Of a stretch of 64,000 nt of DNA, positions 2,718-19,310 are shown piece by piece. Origin of the DNA: an uncultured Polyangiaceae bacterium (GTDB taxonomy: Bacteria > Acidobacteriota > Thermoanaerobaculia > Multivoradales > JAHEKO01); NCBI GenBank assembly GCA_964195975.1, contig CAXMQZ010000006.1, positions 3,009 to 67,008 on the forward strand, written 5' to 3'. Position numbers and translations under genes: made by a program. Every line of letters starts with the position of its first letter. Position 1 is the stretch's first letter. The notes under the pieces are model-generated. The model saw nothing but the letters and a program-made list of their open reading frames with translations. It was not told the DNA's origin and made no database searches.

Positions 2718-4476
2718 CGTTTTGTTTTGGCTTGGGTCCATAGGCTGGTCGCCACATCAAAATTGTGTGCTCAGGATCAAGGATTATGTCTCTGATGTTT
2801 GAGCCAAAAGTAAGTTCAAAGGTTTGAGCCGAGGTACTGAGCTCTACTTCTCTTACTTCAGAATCACCAGAATAGAATTGAAACTCGATTGGGATCCTCA
2901 AGTGATAAAGATCTTCTTGTTCCTGAGTCAAACTAATTGTCACCTTGAATTCTGTCTCAGGGTCTCCTAGCAATATGCTCTCTACCGGCATGTCGCCCAA
3001 ATATTCATACGTCTTCAAATCCATGGGAGATTCCCATGCTATTGAAATTATGGGAGCTCCTTTTCTCTTTAGCCATTGATCGAAGAAGACATTGAGATCA
3101 ATACCTGATTCTTCACCAAAGTAGGTTTGAAGATCCTCGAGGGTCATGCCTTCTGCCTGTTGGGTCAGATTTCTTAGAACTTCAAAAAACAAGTCATCTC
3201 CGAGCTCGAGACGCAACATCTGCCAAAACCACATGCCTTTTGAATCCATGAGCCGGTGAACTTTCCATGAATCACTCTCAATTTCACTCAGAGGCTCATC
3301 CACATTGCTGCGCACCATCGCGAAGTATCCACGTGCCGACTGATAGGTTGAATAAGTTGGGACAGAAACATCCAAGAAATCTTTTAGCGCCTCTTTGCCA
3401 TCTAGTGCTTCTACGGCTAGAACGGCTCCTAGTTGGGCAAGAGCTTCACTGCAGAGCGAAGCACCCGAGCCTTCGCAGCTAAATAAATTCCCCCACCACG
3501 AATGTCCAGCCTCATGAGCAAATAGCGCCAATCCATCGTCTCCTTCAAAATTCTTGCTTTCAGCGACAATAAACCCTTGCTCTGAAGAGGCTCCAAAGTA
3601 GTCTGTTGTGCCATCGGGGATTTCGGCCAAAGCAAAAGTGGCATAGGGATAGACTCCAAACGCATTTTCAAGAACGTCAATAATTCTCGCAAATTGATGC
3701 GCTTTGTTTTCTGCATCATGAGGACTCGCATCGAGCAGATACATCTTGATGTCGATGTTGCCTTGTCTTACATTTGAAACTTGGAAAGGAGCAGCGACAT
3801 AGCTTCGTGCAATTCCAGGTCCTACCCTCCATGTTTGTTTGTTACCGCTTTGATCTTGTTGGTCTACGACTAATTTTCCGTTTGAAAGCGCATGCCAATC
3901 CTTGGGAAGGATAAAACTGGTGGGGCCGGGAATGGATAGATTTTCTTTAGAAACAAAAGATCCCGAATCTGCAATAGCTACCGGATACCATAACGTGACC
4001 CAACTGGCATAACTCAAATGTTCTCGTTGGAGCACCTGACCTTGCTCTGCAATGAATTCATATTCGAAGGTGACAGTGACTTCGGCGACACCTTCTGAGA
4101 ACGACTTGAAATCAATCACATACAGGGTGCCTACTCTCTCTGTATCTGGATGAGCTTGTTCAGATAGTTGTGCTTTCTCACCCAGTGCATTGGATGCTTC
4201 TATGTTTGTCATCTTCATGCTTGCCTCTCTGTTGTTAAGCATGAGCACTGGACCTTTGGATGAGTTGGCATCTGTCTTCAAAATCATCGTGCCGTTATAG
4301 GTAGGCTGTTTTTTCGTCAGGTCTATTGTTATGTCTAATTGGGTGGCTTCCCATATGGCTCGTTTCTTAAGATCGTCAACGGTTAATGATTGAGCACAGA
4401 GACTATTTTCTATTGTCATGAGAAGGATGAAAATGACGATAGGAAATTTGAAAAGGATGCTGAGCTTGGATTTCAT
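2710..4476 (-). CDS. Secreted M1-family zinc aminopeptidase, low-GC gene
   Basis: Signal peptide; GASSE exopeptidase-like motif, HEAGHSWW (HEXXH) and downstream SEALA glutamate; ~45% GC by spot counts. Confidence 0.85.
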   Translation of the reverse strand: MKSKLSILFKFPIVIFILLMTIENSLCAQSLTVDDLKKRAIWEATQLDITIDLTKKQPTYNGTMILKTDANSSKGPVLMLNNREASMKMTNIEASNALGEKAQLSEQAHPDTERVGTLYVIDFKSFSEGVAEVTVTFEYEFIAEQGQVLQREHLSYASWVTLWYPVAIADSGSFVSKENLSIPGPTSFILPKDWHALSNGKLVVDQQDQSGNKQTWRVGPGIARSYVAAPFQVSNVRQGNIDIKMYLLDASPHDAENKAHQFARIIDVLENAFGVYPYATFALAEIPDGTTDYFGASSEQGFIVAESKNFEGDDGLALFAHEAGHSWWGNLFSCEGSGASLCSEALAQLGAVLAVEALDGKEALKDFLDVSVPTYSTYQSARGYFAMVRSNVDEPLSEIESDSWKVHRLMDSKGMWFWQMLRLELGDDLFFEVLRNLTQQAEGMTLEDLQTYFGEESGIDLNVFFDQWLKRKGAPIISIAWESPMDLKTYEYLGDMPVESILLGDPETEFKVTISLTQEQEDLYHLRIPIEFQFYSGDSEVREVELSTSAQTFELTFGSNIRDIILDPEHTILMWRPAYGPKPKQNEM

Positions 4477-8501: not shown

Positions 8502-8786
8502 GTGGCAAAGACCCGCAAGATCCAGGTAACGCTTGAGGAGTCTCAGTACGAGACGCTCGCGCGGATTGCTGAGCGTGATGGAAAGAAGCTGGCCGCCGTC
8601 GTGCGAGAGTCGATCGAGCGCTATTGCCTCGGTCCGGAGTCGAAGAAGGCCAAGCGGGAAGCCCTGAACGCGCTTCTCACCGTGTCGGAAGCGGCCCCCG
8701 AGGATTATGCTTCCTGGGAGAGTGAGTACGCCGCGCTCAAGACCGAGGTCAAGGACTCCAGAACCGGAACAGGAACCGAACGCTGA
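8502..8786 (+). CDS. Ribbon-helix-helix (CopG-like) antitoxin
   Basis: KIQVTLEESQYETLARIAERDGKKLAAVVRESIERY; directly upstream of a PIN gene. Confidence 0.8.
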   Translation: MAKTRKIQVTLEESQYETLARIAERDGKKLAAVVRESIERYCLGPESKKAKREALNALLTVSEAAPEDYASWESEYAALKTEVKDSRTGTGTER

Positions 8787-8787
8787 A

Positions 8788-9216
8788 GTGGACACCACCG
8801 GAACCTACTTCCTCGATGCCAACGTCTTGATGTACGCCGCCGGTTCGGCGCATCCCCTGAGGGAGCCCTGCCGCGAGGCGCTGACGAGGGCGGTCGATCA
8901 GGAGGTTAGCCTGATTACGGATGCCGAGGTGCTCCAGGAGATCCTGCATCGCTATTTCTCCATCGGCCGGCCAGAGAGCGCCCGGACGGTCCATCACTCG
9001 GCGATCAGTCTCTGCGATGAGGTTCTTCCGGTCGACGAGAGGCACACGACGAGGGCGCTCGCGCTACTCCTCGAGCACCGGACGCTTACCCCTCGCGATG
9101 CCATCCATGTGGCGACCATGGAATCCCGCGGGCTCGAGTTGCTGCTGTCGACCGATCGTGATTTCGACGATTTGAGCCAGGTCGAGCGGATCGCCCCGAC
9201 CGCTTTTCTTCTCTAG
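8788..9216 (+). CDS. vapC: VapC PIN-domain toxin
   Basis: YFLDANVLMY...VLQEILHRY...LTPRDAIHVA...LLSTDRDFD; GTG start 1 nt after the antitoxin stop. Confidence 0.9.
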   Translation: MDTTGTYFLDANVLMYAAGSAHPLREPCREALTRAVDQEVSLITDAEVLQEILHRYFSIGRPESARTVHHSAISLCDEVLPVDERHTTRALALLLEHRTLTPRDAIHVATMESRGLELLLSTDRDFDDLSQVERIAPTAFLL

Positions 9217-9240: not shown

Positions 9241-11913
9241 TCATCCTTCGATGGGTTCGAAGCGGCCCTGAAAGAAGCGCAGCTTCTCGGGCTCGTAGAC
9301 AAAGCGCAGGCCACGGATCTCGTCCCGACGCTCATAGAGCCGGATAATTCCGTCTGCCACGGCCCGCATGTGATCGCGGGTGTAGACGCGACGAGGAATG
9401 GTCAAACGCACCAGCTCTAGCGGCGGGCGGTAATTCTCGCCCGTGTTGGGATCGCGCCCCTTCGAGACGTTGCCCCGCTCCATGGCCCGCACACCCGTCT
9501 CCACATAAAGCTCGGCTGCCAGACGCTGTGACGGATACTCGTCCTGGTCGATATGGGGTAGAAACCGCTTGGCGTCCAGGAAGATCGCATGACTTCCGGG
9601 TGGCGTGACTATGGGCACGCCGGCGTCCAGGAGCATCTGACCAAGGGCTGCAGTTTGCCATACGCGGGCCCGGATGTAGCGGTCGTCGAGCATCTCTTCG
9701 ACGCCCTGGGCGATCGCCGCCAGATCTCCTGCTGAGAGCCCGCCGTCGGTGATATTGCCCTCGTAGATTCGCAGCAGATGCTCGGATTTCTTGGCCCACT
9801 CGGCGTTGTCTTTGAAGGCCAGGAGACCGCCGATGTTGATCAGAAAGTCCTTCTTGCCGGAGACCGTGCAGCCGTCTCCGTAGAGCAGCATCTCGCGGAG
9901 GATGTCGCGGATCTTGGTCTTTTTATAGTTCGGATCTCGCTGCTGGATCATGAAAGCGTTCTCGGCCATCCGGGTGGCGTCGAAGAAGACCGGAATGTGA
10001 AGGTTGGAGCAGTATGCGTAGACCTGCCGCATGTTCTCCATTGAGACCGGCTGGCCGCCGGCCATATTCACCGAGTGTTCGAAGGATATGTAGGCGATCT
10101 TCTCAGCGCCATGCTCATCGACCAGGGCCTCTATCTTGGCCATGTCGATGTTGCCCTTCCAAGGGAAATCGCTCTCGGGGTCATGGGCCTCATCGACGAT
10201 GACGTCGGCGAATACGCCGCCTGCGAGCTCTTGGTGGAGCTTGGTGGTGGTGAAGTACATGTTGCCGGGCACCAGCTGGCCGGGTTGGATCATGACTTCG
10301 GAGAGGATCTGTTCGGCAGCTCGACCTTGATGGGTAGGGATGATGAACTCGTAACCGGTGGCCTCTCGCAGGACCTCCACTAAGTGCAGGTATTCGTCGG
10401 AAGTAGTGGGGGTGGCGCGCGCCGCATCGAAGGCGGCCCACTGGTCGGTGCTCATGGCCGAGGTCCCGGAGTCGGTGAGCAGATCGACGGTGACATCTGC
10501 CGAGCGCAGGAGGAAAGTGTTATAGCCCGCCTCCGCGATGGCCTTGCGACGCTCCTCGCGGCCGAGGGTGGCGATTCGCTCAACGGTGTGGATGACAAAA
10601 GGATAGGTTTCGAACTCGTAGGGCTCGAGGTTGGCGTAGACCCAGCGATACCGCATTTCATCCCTCCAGATCCCCTCGGAAACGAGCTCCAGCGGAGGCA
10701 CGGTATCTCGCTGCTGGTAGAGACGGATGATGGCGTCGGCCACCTGCTCGAGTTGGCGGGTCGTCATGGTGAGTCGGGGGATCTGAACCGGAACCTGATT
10801 GTCCCGACCTACCAGTCCATGGGCCAGGGCTCGAACTCCTGACATCTCGTAGAGCGCGGCCGAGAAGGCATCCTGCTGGAAATTCTTCAGATGCGGCAGA
10901 AACTCTTCGGCCAGGATGTAGGCGCCGTCGCAGCCCCGCTCTGCCGGCACCCCGGCGTCGCGCAGCCGGTCGTTGAAGTGCTCGGTCTGTTGCATGACCC
11001 ACTGCACTTCTTCTTCCAGACACATCTCCTCGAGACCGCGGGCGAAGACCTCCATGGTCCTGCCTGCCATTCCGCCGTAGGTGTGCAGACCCTCGTAGAC
11101 CACCACTTCGTTCATGAAATGCTCGTTGTCTTCTGGGTTGTCAGTGGCCAGCAGACCCCCGGTGGGACACTTGGGGTCCTGGGCCCCGTCGATCTGGAAG
11201 ACGTGCGCGGTCTTGGCAATCTCCTTGACCAGAGCCGCGATGCTGCGAGCAGACATTCCCTCTTCGTGGCGTTGGATGTACCAGGCGTTCTCGATGATCC
11301 GGGAACCATCCAGCACCAGGCGCTTTCCGTGGCGATCTGCTAGCGCCCGGACGGCGCGGAGGTTCTCCAAGCTGAAGGGGTGCTGCCCGTCGCCGAATGC
11401 CTGGAGGCCCACGATGGCAACCCGGCCGCCCTCGAGGAGCTCCTCGAGTCGACCCAGATCTACGTTTCCTGTGAAGACCTCGGTCTGGTGATCCCGGATG
11501 TCGGGGACCTCCACGTTTCGAGGGGTCAAAACATCGATTCGGGTGCGAGCGTTGGAGGGCAAAAGGGAGCCTGCCGGCACCATGGTGGCGGTGACCAATT
11601 TGACGCACCCGAGCACGTTGTGGGTCGGACAGACATAGCTGTGTCCGAGGACCTCTTGTACCGCTTTTTCGAGGTGCTCGAAGTTTCGGGCCCCGGCGTA
11701 GGATTCGTCCCCTATGAGCTGCCCCGACAACTGCTCCTGGGTCATGGCACTCGTGCCGAGCGAGCACATGTCGAATGCGACCTGGGAGGGGGTCAGATTG
11801 AAGACGTTGAAATAGGCCTGGGCTAGGTACTTCTTGCGTTCTTCGAGGGTGGGGAAGGAGATCGGGCGGATGGTCTTGATTTTGTGCGGTTCGTGGGCGA
11901 GTCTGGCAATCAT
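9241..11913 (-). CDS. Tandem two-domain tyrosine phenol-lyase/tryptophanase-family protein (890 aa)
   Basis: Two full-length beta-eliminating lyase repeats; the C-terminal one has LLTDSGT, THQGR, NMYFTTT, DATR, SGKKD, MERG, VRLTIPRR, LRFF (TPL-type signatures). Confidence 0.9.
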   Translation of the reverse strand: MIARLAHEPHKIKTIRPISFPTLEERKKYLAQAYFNVFNLTPSQVAFDMCSLGTSAMTQEQLSGQLIGDESYAGARNFEHLEKAVQEVLGHSYVCPTHNVLGCVKLVTATMVPAGSLLPSNARTRIDVLTPRNVEVPDIRDHQTEVFTGNVDLGRLEELLEGGRVAIVGLQAFGDGQHPFSLENLRAVRALADRHGKRLVLDGSRIIENAWYIQRHEEGMSARSIAALVKEIAKTAHVFQIDGAQDPKCPTGGLLATDNPEDNEHFMNEVVVYEGLHTYGGMAGRTMEVFARGLEEMCLEEEVQWVMQQTEHFNDRLRDAGVPAERGCDGAYILAEEFLPHLKNFQQDAFSAALYEMSGVRALAHGLVGRDNQVPVQIPRLTMTTRQLEQVADAIIRLYQQRDTVPPLELVSEGIWRDEMRYRWVYANLEPYEFETYPFVIHTVERIATLGREERRKAIAEAGYNTFLLRSADVTVDLLTDSGTSAMSTDQWAAFDAARATPTTSDEYLHLVEVLREATGYEFIIPTHQGRAAEQILSEVMIQPGQLVPGNMYFTTTKLHQELAGGVFADVIVDEAHDPESDFPWKGNIDMAKIEALVDEHGAEKIAYISFEHSVNMAGGQPVSMENMRQVYAYCSNLHIPVFFDATRMAENAFMIQQRDPNYKKTKIRDILREMLLYGDGCTVSGKKDFLINIGGLLAFKDNAEWAKKSEHLLRIYEGNITDGGLSAGDLAAIAQGVEEMLDDRYIRARVWQTAALGQMLLDAGVPIVTPPGSHAIFLDAKRFLPHIDQDEYPSQRLAAELYVETGVRAMERGNVSKGRDPNTGENYRPPLELVRLTIPRRVYTRDHMRAVADGIIRLYERRDEIRGLRFVYEPEKLRFFQGRFEPIEG

Positions 11914-12099
11914 GAGATCTACCTCCTACGAACGTCACTGGACGAGGCGGTCGCCAGGAGAGCGGTAACGTTCGTTTCTGAAATGAAGGGCGGACCGGAA
12001 TCCGGCCGCTCGAGTAGTCTGTGCTACCCAACGGGACCGGAAACCCGCCGGGTCAGCAGGTGAATTTTAGCACGTAGGAACGGTGCGGTGGCGGACTTA

Positions 12100-12128
12100 T
12101 TGAAGGTGTACACGTATTAGTGTACACT
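12100..12128 (+). promoter_or_regulatory. Promoter/operator of hicAB
   Basis: TTGAAG-17 nt-TACACT, then 6 nt to GTG; two perfect GTGTACAC palindromes at 12106 and 12120. Confidence 0.72.
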
Positions 12129-12134
12129 CTCGTA

Positions 12135-12311
12135 GTGAAGAGGAGGGATCTCGAGAGTGCTCTGAGAAAGCTCGGGTGGAATTTGTTGCGACATGGTGGA
12201 AAGCATGATGTATGGACCGATGGTGAAAAATCAGAAGCGATTCCCCGGCATTCCGAGATCAGTGAACGACTGGCCAGAGAAATTCTGAAACGAGCAAGGA
12301 GAAAGCCCTGA
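12135..12311 (+). CDS. hicA: HicA toxin
   Basis: MKRRDLESALRKLGW..LRHGGKHDVW...IPRHSEISERLAREIL. Confidence 0.9.
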   Translation: MKRRDLESALRKLGWNLLRHGGKHDVWTDGEKSEAIPRHSEISERLAREILKRARRKP

Positions 12312-12313
12312 AG

Positions 12314-12730
12314 ATGCGATTTTCTGGGAAGGTAATTCGAGACAAGTCCTTCTGGCTGGCTGAGGTGCCGGTCTTCGAGGCCATGACGCAGGGTCGCACC
12401 CGGCGGGAAGCGCTGGAAATGATCGAGGACTGGTTCGCCACGATGGTGGATGTTCCCGGGTTCGCGGTTACGGTCGATCTTACGGGACCACAACAGTTCG
12501 AGGTCAGCAGCTCGGACCTTCGAAGCATGATCAGTTTGTTACTTCGACGGCAGCGGCAAAGAAGCGGACTGTCCCTGGCCGAGGCCGCGGAGCGACTCGG
12601 TGCCAAATCACGCAACACCTATGCACGCTACGAGCGCGGGGAGTCTTTGCCGACGATCGAGAAGCTCGACCAATTGCTACAGGCAGTGTCGGCAGACCGG
12701 GATCTCGTCGTGGATCAAAGCGGCGGGTGA
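12314..12730 (+). CDS. hicB: HicB-type antitoxin with C-terminal XRE HTH
   Basis: WLAEVPVFEAMTQGRTRREALEMIED, then LSLAEAAERLG...YARYERGESLPTIEKL. Confidence 0.85.
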   Translation: MRFSGKVIRDKSFWLAEVPVFEAMTQGRTRREALEMIEDWFATMVDVPGFAVTVDLTGPQQFEVSSSDLRSMISLLLRRQRQRSGLSLAEAAERLGAKSRNTYARYERGESLPTIEKLDQLLQAVSADRDLVVDQSGG

Positions 12731-15994: not shown

Positions 15995-16680
15995 ACGCGC
16001 CGGAACTCGGAGAACTCGAAGTGTTGCTCCTGGCCGCCCGGGGTCGTGTGGATCTCCGATTGGTTGCCTTCGAGCTCGAGACCGTCGCCGAGCTCCCGGG
16101 CCAGCGTTTCTGCCGAGTACCGACAGATCGGCAGGCCGCTGCAGCGGCGAGGTCCCCGCGGCGAAAACGTTGCGATGATCACCTTGCCGCCCGCGGGCAC
16201 CGCCTCGAGAAGCGCCCTTTTGTAGCCGGCGCGGCCCTCCTCGGTAATGAGAAAGTGAAAGACCGCGCGGTCGTGCCACAGGTTGTAGTGGCGAGTGGGG
16301 CGGAATTTGGTGACGTCCGCTTCGAGCCAAGTCACCCTATCGGCCTGACTGCCGAGACGCTCTCGGGATCGCTTCAGAGCGCCTCCTGAAAGATCGAGCA
16401 CCGTGAGATCCTGATAACCCCGCTCGAGCAGCAGATCCACCAATCTGGAGTCGCCACCCCCCACGTCGAGAACACCCGCGCTCGGGTCCGGAGCGAAGCG
16501 TTCGACCCACTCCAGCGATCGGTCGGGTCGAGTTTGGAACCAACCGTGCGAATGGGAAGACTGAGTGGAGTAGACCTCCTCCCAGTGAGATTTGCGATCC
16601 ACGGTACCGAGCCATCGTTGCAACCGCTTACCGACCAGCGCTAGCCACGTGGGGCGGTCTAATTCGTTTTGAATCGTCAT
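15991..16680 (-). CDS. Class I SAM-dependent methyltransferase
   Basis: HWEEVY...SWFQ-like segment, VLDVGGGDSRLVD, TVLDLS, WHDRAVFHFL. Confidence 0.88.
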   Translation of the reverse strand: MTIQNELDRPTWLALVGKRLQRWLGTVDRKSHWEEVYSTQSSHSHGWFQTRPDRSLEWVERFAPDPSAGVLDVGGGDSRLVDLLLERGYQDLTVLDLSGGALKRSRERLGSQADRVTWLEADVTKFRPTRHYNLWHDRAVFHFLITEEGRAGYKRALLEAVPAGGKVIIATFSPRGPRRCSGLPICRYSAETLARELGDGLELEGNQSEIHTTPGGQEQHFEFSEFRRV

Positions 16681-19145
16681 GTTGGCCCGGTCTCCTCGGA
16701 GACTGTTTCGCTGGGCTGGATGACGGTGGAGGGCTGACGGAAAAAACGCTCGGCTACTCGAGACGGATCGCCGACGATCTCCGACGGCCGCTCCAGTGCC
16801 AGCCAATCGGCCGGCAGATGATTCTTGTAGGGTGCCATCAGAAAACGCTCATCAAAAAGAGCGATGACGCCGGTGTCAGTTTCTGAGCGGATCAGCCGGC
16901 CGGCAGCCTGTACGACTCGAGTCATGCCGGGGATTACAAAGGAGTATTCAAAGCCGCGCTCGAAGCGGTCGTCGTAGTAGCGCTTGAGTAGCTCCTGATC
17001 GAGGCTCACGGCTGGCAGACAGGGGCCAACAACGGCAACGGCTTTGAGCATGTCTCCGGGGTAATCGACGCCTTCGGCAAAGACACCGCCGGCGACCGCC
17101 ATCAACAAGACATCCCCCATCAGTGCCGAACGCAGTATCTGCAGGATCTCCTCACGTTCCTGGTCGCTTCCTGAAGGTCTCTGGATGAGGATCCGTTTGC
17201 GCTTCACATCGAGCTGTCTGGCGACTTCGTCGAGGAATTTGTAGCTTGGAAACAGAGCCAGACAGTTGCCCGGAACCTGCTCGGCAAACGAGGCCAGGCG
17301 TTTGGCGATCCGAGGGTAGTTCTCAGGGCGCTTGCGCCAGACTGTGGCGACCGACGGATCGATAACGACGCCCCTGTTCTCAGCCGGGAAGGGGCTGGGT
17401 AGGCTCATGGTTGTGAGTCGTTCGGCATCGAAGCCGAGGAGATCACGGTAGAACTCGGTCGGGGACAGCGTAGCCGAAAGCCCGATGGTCGAGTGGGTGC
17501 GGTTGATCACCCGTCCCAGTAACCGGCTCGGGTCCTTACAGAAGATGCGCAGGCTCGATGTGGCTGAGGTCCGTTGGGCGCAATGGCTGAAGGCCTCGCC
17601 ATCGGTCTCGGAGAGCGATAGCCCATCCATGAATCGCAGATAGGTGAAGTAGAGGTCGACAAATGCATCTTCGGCACGAAACGAGGAGGTGTCACGCCGA
17701 TACTCGAGATAGTCGATAAAGATCTCGTCGAAATGAGCTCGGAAGGCCCAGAGATCGTCCTCGGGCATCAGGGTCTCGACGGCCTCGACCTGACCGGCCT
17801 CCTCTTCCAGCGCCACGGCTACGGTCTCCTCGATCAGACGTTGGAGATCGGCGCAGAGCTCTATGGCCTTCTTGTGGACCGGGTCTCGGCCCTTGGCCAT
17901 GAACTCAGCTGCTGAAGCGAGCTGACGGGTTGTCAGCTCGGGGCTGTAGTAACCGCGCCCGCGGCCGACCAGGTTATGGATCTCATCGATGATCAGGATG
18001 ACATCGCGAAGATCGCTGTCTTCGCTGAAATCGCTCAATGAGACATAGGGTTCGAAGGCATAGTTGTAGTCGCAGACAACCACCTGACCCTGCCGGCTGA
18101 GCTCCAGACTGACCTCGAAGGGGCAGATCTCATGCTCTCGAGCGGCCTCATAGATTCGATCGGGCAGCAGGGTGGAGAAATCGTCCATCAGACGCGGCAT
18201 CAGGCCGGAGCTTTGCAGCTTGGAGTAGTAATCCCTGGCATAGGGGCAGTACTCCTCGTGGCAGAGGACCTGATCGTTGGCACACATCTTCGATTTGGCC
18301 CGCAGCTGCAGAGAGTGGAAGTTGTCTTCCTGATTGAGCATCATCAGAACCTTGATCGCCATCTCCTGCTGCAGGGTCTTTGCGGTCAGGACAAATACCC
18401 GTTTGTCGTTCGCCAAGGCATAGCGGAGCGTCGGGAGAATGGCGGCCACGGTCTTGCCGATGCCAGTTGGAGCTTCGACAAAGAGATGGCTTCGATCCTC
18501 TAGACACTGTTCGACCGCTTCGACGATCTCTTGCTGACCAGGTCGAAGCTCGGCATGAGGAAATGAAAGACGGGTAGCCGTGGAACGTCGAGTGGCGGCG
18601 GCGGCCTGGCTGGTCTCGAACTCTCGAATCAGGGCGTTGAGCCGCTTCCGGACGGCGGTTTCGAGCGGGGCTTTCTTGTACTCGAGCAGCTCGTGGTCGA
18701 TCTCTTCGCTGCCGATCTCGATCCAGACCAACTCGACACGCACCTTCCCTTCACCCGCCTTGGTCAACATCCAGGCGTAGAACAGAGCCTGCTTGGCATA
18801 GATTTCGCGCAGCATCGTCGAGGGAGTGGATCCCCGGCGGATCGATTTGATCTCCTCGACAACGACGGTGCCATCGTCGTCTCGACGCAGACCGTCGATG
18901 CGCCCCTGGATTGTCACCTGCCAACCCCGGTGCACAAATTCGGCCGAGACCGAGACTTCTCGTTGGTAGGTGGAATCCTCTGCCAGTGTTTTCTCCTGAT
19001 AGCGGCTATGGATCGCCTGGCCGAGCCATTTGCGCTCGTGTCCGCCCCGGTTCGCAAAACCGAGGTGACGCGTCAGGCTCGAATCGATGAGGTCGCCGAC
19101 GGATAGCCCCAGGCTGCGGGTGTCCAGATCGAAGCGCACGGTCAT
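16677..19145 (-). CDS. PD-(D/E)XK nuclease fused to XPD/DinG-family Fe-S helicase
   Basis: GRIDG...EEIKS nuclease motif; APTGIGKT, four Cys (CAND..C...C...CPF), IDEIHN, SAT, EGVD, QAAGRLIR. Confidence 0.88.
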   Translation of the reverse strand: MTVRFDLDTRSLGLSVGDLIDSSLTRHLGFANRGGHERKWLGQAIHSRYQEKTLAEDSTYQREVSVSAEFVHRGWQVTIQGRIDGLRRDDDGTVVVEEIKSIRRGSTPSTMLREIYAKQALFYAWMLTKAGEGKVRVELVWIEIGSEEIDHELLEYKKAPLETAVRKRLNALIREFETSQAAAATRRSTATRLSFPHAELRPGQQEIVEAVEQCLEDRSHLFVEAPTGIGKTVAAILPTLRYALANDKRVFVLTAKTLQQEMAIKVLMMLNQEDNFHSLQLRAKSKMCANDQVLCHEEYCPYARDYYSKLQSSGLMPRLMDDFSTLLPDRIYEAAREHEICPFEVSLELSRQGQVVVCDYNYAFEPYVSLSDFSEDSDLRDVILIIDEIHNLVGRGRGYYSPELTTRQLASAAEFMAKGRDPVHKKAIELCADLQRLIEETVAVALEEEAGQVEAVETLMPEDDLWAFRAHFDEIFIDYLEYRRDTSSFRAEDAFVDLYFTYLRFMDGLSLSETDGEAFSHCAQRTSATSSLRIFCKDPSRLLGRVINRTHSTIGLSATLSPTEFYRDLLGFDAERLTTMSLPSPFPAENRGVVIDPSVATVWRKRPENYPRIAKRLASFAEQVPGNCLALFPSYKFLDEVARQLDVKRKRILIQRPSGSDQEREEILQILRSALMGDVLLMAVAGGVFAEGVDYPGDMLKAVAVVGPCLPAVSLDQELLKRYYDDRFERGFEYSFVIPGMTRVVQAAGRLIRSETDTGVIALFDERFLMAPYKNHLPADWLALERPSEIVGDPSRVAERFFRQPSTVIQPSETVSEETGPT

Positions 19146-19310
19146 GACCGGGAAGTATAAGCGGTGAACCACGCTGCACGGTGACAGCGACCTCCCCGCA
19201 ATCCATTCCCTTGGATCGAAACCATTTTGGTCGTGTGTCCCCCTCGATTCAATCGATTGAAGAAGATGTCCTGTCACAGCCTGTTTTGTTTGCTATGCTC
19301 TCCGGTGCCC

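Follow-up and report, generated by a model that had tools for sequence, protein, structure and literature searches.

A tandem tyrosine phenol-lyase-like protein with reciprocally lost active-site residues, predicted to form one composite site per chain

In a 64,000-nucleotide stretch of DNA from an uncultured Polyangiaceae bacterium (contig CAXMQZ010000006.1, positions 3,009 to 67,008), hereafter the window, we analysed a reverse-strand gene (9241..11913) for an 890-amino-acid protein that carries two tyrosine phenol-lyase (TPL)-like units in tandem. All features of this gene given below lie on the same strand. The open reading frame (ORF) is uninterrupted and closes with the stop codon at 9241-9243; a Shine-Dalgarno-like AGGAGG, read from the sequence, was found at 11922..11927, 8 nt upstream of the ATG at 11913. 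The N-terminal unit (N-unit; residues 1-433, 10615..11913) is a full-length TPL-like unit without a site for pyridoxal 5'-phosphate (PLP), which has kept the residues that a TPL subunit lends to its neighbour. The C-terminal unit (C-unit; residues 437-890, 9244..10605) is complete with regard to PLP and substrate binding and lacks the residues equivalent to TPL E69, Y71 and Y291. Between them the residues F434-E435-T436 (10606..10614) lead from the tail of the N-unit to the N-terminal arm of the C-unit. Judged by its residues, the gene likely encodes a PLP-dependent beta-eliminating lyase of the TPL type, which would have originated when a TPL gene was duplicated head to tail and the resulting units then decayed in complementary fashion, leaving one composite active site per chain.

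The beta-eliminating lyase family PF01212 (Pfam) was matched twice in the protein, with 323 bits against a gathering cut-off of 27. With the tyrosine phenol-lyase model TIGR02618 (NCBIfam) the N-unit (residues 1-434) scored 256.4 bits and the C-unit (residues 435-890) 626.7 bits; the 878 bits obtained for the whole protein, to be compared with an equivalog cut-off of 720.7, are a sum over the two units. Tryptophanase models scored below TIGR02618 on both units. The TPL chains of Erwinia herbicola and Citrobacter freundii in the PDB were matched by the C-unit with E = 7e-160 and by the N-unit with E = 2e-62, and the C-unit is 53% identical to TPL. When the two units were aligned with each other they showed 28% identity (E = 1e-49) and the alignment reached the very ends of both, the N-unit tail MRYRWVYANLEP pairing with the C-unit tail LRFFQGRFEP. 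Since the units align end to end, the chain consists of two full-length TPL units with a join of about 3 residues and almost no linker.

The TPL numbering was carried onto both units via HMMER alignments; equivalent TPL residues are given in brackets. In the C-unit the full complement of residues that a PLP-bearing TPL subunit contributes was present, as T480, D481, S482 and G483 (T49, D50, S51 and G52), Q529, G530 and R531 (Q98-G99-R100), F554 (F123), T555 (T124), N616 (N185), D645 (D214), R648 (R217), S685 (S254), K687 (K256), K688 (K257), N693 (N262), H775 (H343), M811 (M379), R813 (R381), R836 (R404), F880 (F448) and F881 (F449). K687-K688 are encoded at 9850..9855, with the Schiff-base lysine K688 at codon 9850-9852, where a preliminary description of this DNA had placed the K257 equivalent. 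T555 (10249..10251) corresponds to the contact of the phenol hydroxyl, R813 (9475..9477) to the tyrosine-specific residue and F880-F881 (9271..9276) to the lid of the closed active site. In place of E69, Y71 and Y291 the C-unit contains A500, P502 and D723 (D723 at 9745..9747); A500-T501-P502 (10408..10416) stand for TPL E69-A70-Y71, and the lent residues are lost.

The N-unit keeps the three residues missing from the C-unit. E70 (E69) and Y72 (Y71) lie in the loop GDESYAG (G68-G74, 11692..11712), and Y279 (Y291) in the loop EGLHTYGGMAGR (E274-R285, 11059..11094). In its lysine loop Q245 (11179..11181) occupies the position of the PLP lysine K257, A244 that of K256 and D242 that of S254. Q98-G99-R100 is replaced by N-V-L, T49, F123 and T124 fall into gaps, R381 has become H365 and R404 has become P375, and at N185 there is a gap in one alignment and an Asp in another. 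From the PLP-binding set (K257, Q98-G99-R100, D214, R217, S254, N185) only D214 and R217 remain in the N-unit. Once both units are combined, the PLP-, substrate- and cation-binding residues are all present. The preliminary description had proposed this reciprocal loss, with the residues donated in trans in the N-terminal half and the cis residues in the C-terminal half. Every motif quoted there was found as written, the losses of N185, R381 and R404 reappear above as gap or Asp, His and Pro, and the pattern was confirmed by the residue map together with homologues across phyla.

A word-index search among proteins of 490-1557 amino acids (E <= 0.001) yielded 1552 matches. The best 120 of these, from NCBI, JGI, ENA and Logan assemblies, were almost all 883-914 amino acids long and 74-93% identical. 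In a scan with one genome per species at least 594 relatives were found, and among the best 80 loci, nearly all of which came from metagenome-assembled genomes, almost all spanned both units. These 80 loci were distributed over Planctomycetota, Gemmatimonadota, Acidobacteriota, Myxococcota, Eisenbacteria, Bacteroidales, Desulfobacterota, Chloroflexota, Elusimicrobiales, KSB1 and gamma-proteobacteria.

From the relatives a clean alignment of 95 fused proteins was obtained, with 47-92% identity and more than 10 phyla represented. G68, D69, E70, Y72, A73 and G74 of the first N-unit loop were invariant (95/95), as were K687-K688 of the C-unit (95/95), T555 and R813. The C-unit PLP set was invariant as well, except for N616, which was at least 90% conserved. 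Gln stood at N-unit position 245 in 92/95 sequences, and Asp, Asn or Ser at C-unit position 723 in 93/95, with Tyr never the commonest residue there. The two lent loops, GDExYAG and EGLHTYGGMxGR, make up 36 of 413 N-unit positions and contain 18 of the 36 invariant N-unit residues (hypergeometric p = 3e-12). Mean conservation was higher in the N-unit than in the C-unit for loop 1 (0.81 vs 0.61) and loop 2 (0.955 vs 0.69), whereas the lysine loop showed the opposite (0.67 vs 0.89); loop 2 (residues 268-288) was the best-conserved of the N-unit segments compared. In four metagenome runs, contigs of many other organisms piled up on the bin 11033-11139, with loose ends at 11066 and 11106; this bin encodes the second lent loop, whose conservation extends even to the nucleotide sequence.

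The residues were also counted in a set of 70 sequences, comprising the largest ORFs of 69 species-level loci and the window protein. Its N-units contained E69 in 64/70, Y71 in 63/70, Y291 in 65/70 and Gln at K257 in 61/70, and its C-units contained K257 in 64/70 and a Tyr at position 71 or 291 in 0/70. The few exceptions are probably loci whose longest ORF was another gene. A survey of homologues of about 890 residues had been suggested in the preliminary description, and the reciprocal pattern held in the 95 aligned and the 70 counted sequences as well as in the 15 fused representatives described below. Comparison with a 92% identical relative gave ratios of non-synonymous to synonymous substitution rates (dN/dS) of 0.052 in the N-unit and 0.047 in the C-unit. 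We concluded that purifying selection acts on the N-unit just as it does on the catalytic one.

The possibility had been raised earlier that a second PLP is bound in the N-unit via the lysine of a nearby DPK motif (K248). At this position the 95 sequences have Lys in 65, Arg in 22 and Met in 6. The lysine is poorly conserved, which makes a second Schiff-base lysine unlikely, and K248 was ruled out as a substitute.

We infer that the protein acts on tyrosine with one PLP per chain. PLP would be bound by K688 of the C-unit, the carboxylate of L-tyrosine by R836, and the phenol would lie among T555, R813, F880 and F881. Y72 of an N-unit would be the general acid that protonates C-gamma of the leaving phenol; Y72 and Y279 would form hydrogen bonds to the PLP phosphate, and E70 would complete the monovalent-cation site. 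In TPL the cation ligands G52 and N262 are provided by one subunit and E69 by the other. The N-unit itself would bind no PLP and would supply what in TPL the other member of the catalytic dimer contributes. Each chain would thereby contribute to one live and one dead site. The dead pockets are predicted to be unable to bind PLP, having no lysine, no phosphate loop and an Asp in place of the phosphate-binding Ser. Both N-terminal arms are conserved. The working particle is probably a TPL-tetramer-like assembly of two chains with two live sites instead of four.

Donation of these residues in trans, as assumed in the preliminary description, is in agreement with published work on tryptophanase. 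In the Escherichia coli enzyme the PLP phosphate is hydrogen-bonded by the hydroxyls of Tyr74 and Tyr307 from the adjacent subunit, and the Y74F exchange leaves negligible activity (PMC2770544). The proton donor of tryptophan indole-lyase from Proteus, Tyr-72*, is contributed by the second chain of the catalytic dimer (PMC11301627). We equated Tyr74 and Tyr307 with TPL Y71 and Y291 by position, using our own transfer of the numbering. For TPL, Tyr71 has been described as the general acid, and Arg381 and Thr124 as the residues that handle the phenol (PMC10170061).

A preference for tyrosine had also been predicted earlier, and the residues point the same way: the C-unit has T124, R381, F448 and F449, and C-units of the window group form a clade that is sister to Erwinia TPL. 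The specificity positions, occupied by Thr, Arg and Phe in the C-unit, carry Asp, Ile/Val/Leu and His in sequences resembling tryptophanase (EC 4.1.99.1; 1AX4, 2OQX). Specificity for tyrosine appears likely, but is not certain.

The pairing of the units was considered on the basis of AlphaFold2 models. With the 95-sequence alignment the best model reached a predicted local distance difference test score (pLDDT) of 93.2 and a predicted template modelling score (pTM) of 0.91; from the latter, the two units are confidently placed relative to each other. The modelled C-unit superposed on closed TPL (2tpl_A) with a TM-score of 0.98 and a root-mean-square deviation (rmsd) of 1.5 Å over all 455 residues, the arm included. 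Both N-terminal arms contained a strand of 8 residues (10-17 and 439-446), and short strands were present at 57-58 and 485/487-488. In the tryptophanase tetramer residues 12-17 and 58-60 of subunits A and C make up a sheet of four strands in the non-catalytic interface (PMC2770544), and the four strands of our model are the equivalents of these segments. Because such strands need partners and the junction has only about 3 residues, we lean, on the strength of the model, towards the linked units being non-catalytic, arm-exchanging neighbours, with the composite site formed between two chains. Each live site would then be shared by two chains, one giving its N-unit and the other its C-unit.

In the preliminary description the protein was regarded as a true single-chain pseudo-heterodimer, in which the catalytic interface lies between the two units of a single chain. 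On this reading, two such chains would associate via their arms. The complementarity of the sequences fits this arrangement equally well, and in the model the dead site had a pLDDT of 92-96 and the live site one of 77-88, which is what one would expect if the dead site is packed and the live one empty. We nevertheless regard pairing within one chain as possible but rather doubtful. The short junction speaks against it, the C-unit arm retains the extended conformation of the crystal structure in the superposition described above, and both arms form their 8-residue strands even in a single-chain model, pointing to the non-catalytic A-C sheet (PMC2770544). A fold search among viral models gave as best match an 867-residue predicted fused two-unit PLP protein, the model quality of which is uncertain; both halves aligned, with a TMq of 0.30 and an rmsd of 29 Å, and this poor superposition agrees with pairing between chains, but is weak evidence. 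The chains listed by the fold search in the PDB were all single units. As put forward in the preliminary description, pairing within one polypeptide was not supported; the strands of the model match the non-catalytic A-C interface and suggest a site between chains.

Several observations weigh against the proposed composite lyase or against its assembly from two chains. The C-unit score stays below the TIGR02618 cut-off, and for this reason the specificity for tyrosine was called likely but not certain above. The gene was detected in no RNA run among those searched for expression. An AlphaFold2 model built from 37 sequences had a pLDDT of only 75.7, a pTM of 0.69 and disordered arms, and the other four of the five models from 95 sequences had a pLDDT of 80-83. 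The pairing between chains has no other basis than the secondary-structure string, the TM-scores and a junction almost free of linker. Finally, N99, D242, Q245 and D246 in the dead pocket of the N-unit were 97-100% conserved, which plain decay does not account for.

On the C-unit side of the dead pocket R715 was 94% and D723 80% conserved. To judge from the sequences, these conserved replacements look like selection for a new state and not like drift. A more far-reaching and speculative proposal can be made from this, namely that non-catalytic neighbours were fused, so that two chains cross-complement each other, and that the dead sites were rebuilt with near-invariant polar residues (N99, D242, Q245 and D246; R715, E718 and D723) into a new pocket for a ligand or cation. 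If this were true, the lyase would be hard-wired to half-of-the-sites behaviour and would have a regulatory site built in. The preliminary description had likewise suggested that the dead pocket might be an allosteric sensor, or that the asymmetry might permit a new substrate.

Catalysis might alternatively take place between the C-units of two chains, by a chemistry without Y71 or Y291, the N-unit being a mere scaffold or regulatory pseudoenzyme. Related enzymes can indeed eliminate good leaving groups with less help from a general acid. However, E70, Y72 and the Y279 loop were invariant in 95/95 sequences while the N-unit's own pocket is gone, which makes sense only if these residues serve a partner site. 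In addition, the C-unit retains T124, R381, F448 and F449, which are important for tyrosine, and tryptophanase with the Y74F exchange is nearly dead (PMC2770544). We consider catalysis without the lent residues very improbable.

In a marine sediment metagenome mismatch-free Logan contigs covered 10252-10755 and 10726-12200 and thereby spanned the junction, and a 1092-nt contig of a 94% identical relative from a different study spanned it as well. An assembly chimera of two neighbouring TPL genes, named in the preliminary description as a way in which the protein could be an artefact, or a decaying pseudogene fused by a lost stop codon, can be dismissed almost with certainty, the chimera by homologues of the same length, loci covering both units and these junction-spanning contigs, and the pseudogene by the dN/dS of about 0.05 in both units.

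An exhaustive search among representatives at 50% identity showed that fused members reach down to 36% identity, and the reciprocal pattern was common to 15 fused representatives over this range. Among distant fused relatives all N-units retain E69, Y71 and Y291, and all C-units retain the PLP set and lack Y291. The intermediates P0124, P0125, P0127 and P0128 have a partial phosphate loop and no lysine in the N-unit. The lysine, S254 and Q-G-R have all survived in the N-units of P0133, P0135 and P0137; P0136 clusters with these three, and its N-unit retains only the lysine. Taken together, the sequences suggest that the fused relatives form a graded series of decay, from lysine in both units over lysine in one to full reciprocal loss. 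P0133, P0135, P0136 and P0137 represent a second kind of tandem beta-eliminating lyase, 864-909 amino acids long with a PLP lysine in both units. Their C-units lack the full TPL-type set at the substrate positions, and such proteins might accommodate two PLP and use a different substrate.

In a maximum-likelihood tree the C-units of the window group formed one clade (Shimodaira-Hasegawa-like approximate likelihood ratio test, SH-aLRT, 97), the sister to Erwinia TPL mentioned above, among sequences with T124, R381 and F448. The N-units were long-branched, with a branching order largely congruent with that of the C-unit tree; both features are expected from one old fusion followed by faster change of the N-unit. 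The group retaining the lysine branched separately, and the tree is compatible with one origin or two.

An unfused two-gene ancestor, with a separate N-like gene, was sought among the relatives and none was found. Three candidates for unfused genes were rejected: P0129 is truncated at the end of its contig, P0258 has the look of a fused gene with a frameshift, and P0145 is a degenerate single TPL without an adjacent partner gene. P0146 (482 amino acids) consists of about 200 unrelated residues followed by an N-unit fragment, probably a misassembly or frameshift in the source. P0218, P0268, P0262, P0269 and P0252 form a clade of single-unit proteins with the PLP lysine, with Pro, Phe or Ser at Tyr71 and no Tyr291.

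TPL (EC 4.1.99.2; Citrobacter freundii, Erwinia herbicola; 2TPL, 2EZ1, 1C7G) has the same fold, and its N-terminal arms are also conserved in the window protein. It is a homotetramer of identical 456-residue subunits with four sites, in which each subunit both lends and receives Y71, Y291 and E69. The window protein differs in that two units, with one job each, are fused in a chain of 890 residues, so that at most half of the sites can work. From its residues it would function like TPL, but it departs from the family in two features, the identity of the subunits and the lending and receiving by each of them. All TPL and tryptophanase forms studied are, to our knowledge, symmetric homotetramers. 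The proteins described here are at present annotated as plain 'tyrosine phenol-lyase' or 'tryptophanase'.

The preliminary description knew of no characterised example. Our literature searches turned up no paper describing a TPL or tryptophanase in tandem or fused form, and for a TPL protein the statement stands; the concept itself, however, has precedents. The P-protein of glycine decarboxylase (GcvP/GLDC; 4LHC), also a fold-type-I PLP enzyme, contains two homologous halves in one chain; its lysine is confined to the C-terminal half, and the N-terminal half has Gln instead (PMC7259800). The window protein has the same layout, with Q245. The P-protein comes from another, unrelated family of this fold type, and its chemistry, a decarboxylation onto the lipoyl H-protein, is a different one. 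It also occurs in some bacteria and archaea as separate alpha and beta subunits, whereas no unfused TPL-type pair was found among the relatives. Serine palmitoyltransferase (LCB1/LCB2), a PLP enzyme of two protein subunits, occurs as a fused chain too, in a coccolithovirus form (PMC5371807). This enzyme is an alpha-oxoamine synthase and not a lyase, and its subunits are old paralogues and not products of a recent tandem duplication.

The lyase gene stands alone in the window, between a toxin pair with a PIN domain and a gene with a helix-turn-helix (HTH) domain. The former, a VapBC-like pair at 8502-9216 on the forward strand, is convergent with the lyase gene; a 94-amino-acid protein without Pfam match overlaps a 169-amino-acid PIN-domain protein, the ORF of which ends, stop included, 24 nt before the lyase stop codon. 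On the other side a 138-amino-acid protein with a C-terminal HTH_31/HTH_3 domain (12314-12730, forward strand) is divergent from the lyase gene, with about 400 nt in between, and may be the antitoxin of another toxin-antitoxin pair. No conserved operon partner was found when the window was compared with the loci L001, from the 92% identical relative, and L002, as the neighbours differ among the three. L001 carries, about 4 kb from the fused gene, a second PF01212 gene (3092-4252) for a single unit of 386 amino acids, which has no nearby counterpart in the window. Further away in the window, 16677-19277 on the reverse strand encodes an 866-amino-acid protein with a PD-(D/E)XK nuclease domain and a DinG/XPD-type helicase (DEAD_2, HBB, Helicase_C_2).

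TPL and tryptophanase are textbook PLP enzymes and are used as industrial catalysts, for instance in the synthesis of L-DOPA. The proteins described here would be a natural and widespread form, with relatives in at least 594 species-level genomes, in which the active site has been divided, with its receiving half on one unit and its lending half on the other. A fused lyase of this kind would show which residues truly act in trans, and would offer an asymmetric scaffold, available as it stands, that lets one unit be altered while the other is left alone. The series of graded decay among the relatives would record how a symmetric oligomer turned into an obligate asymmetric one after gene fusion, in parallel to the P-protein.

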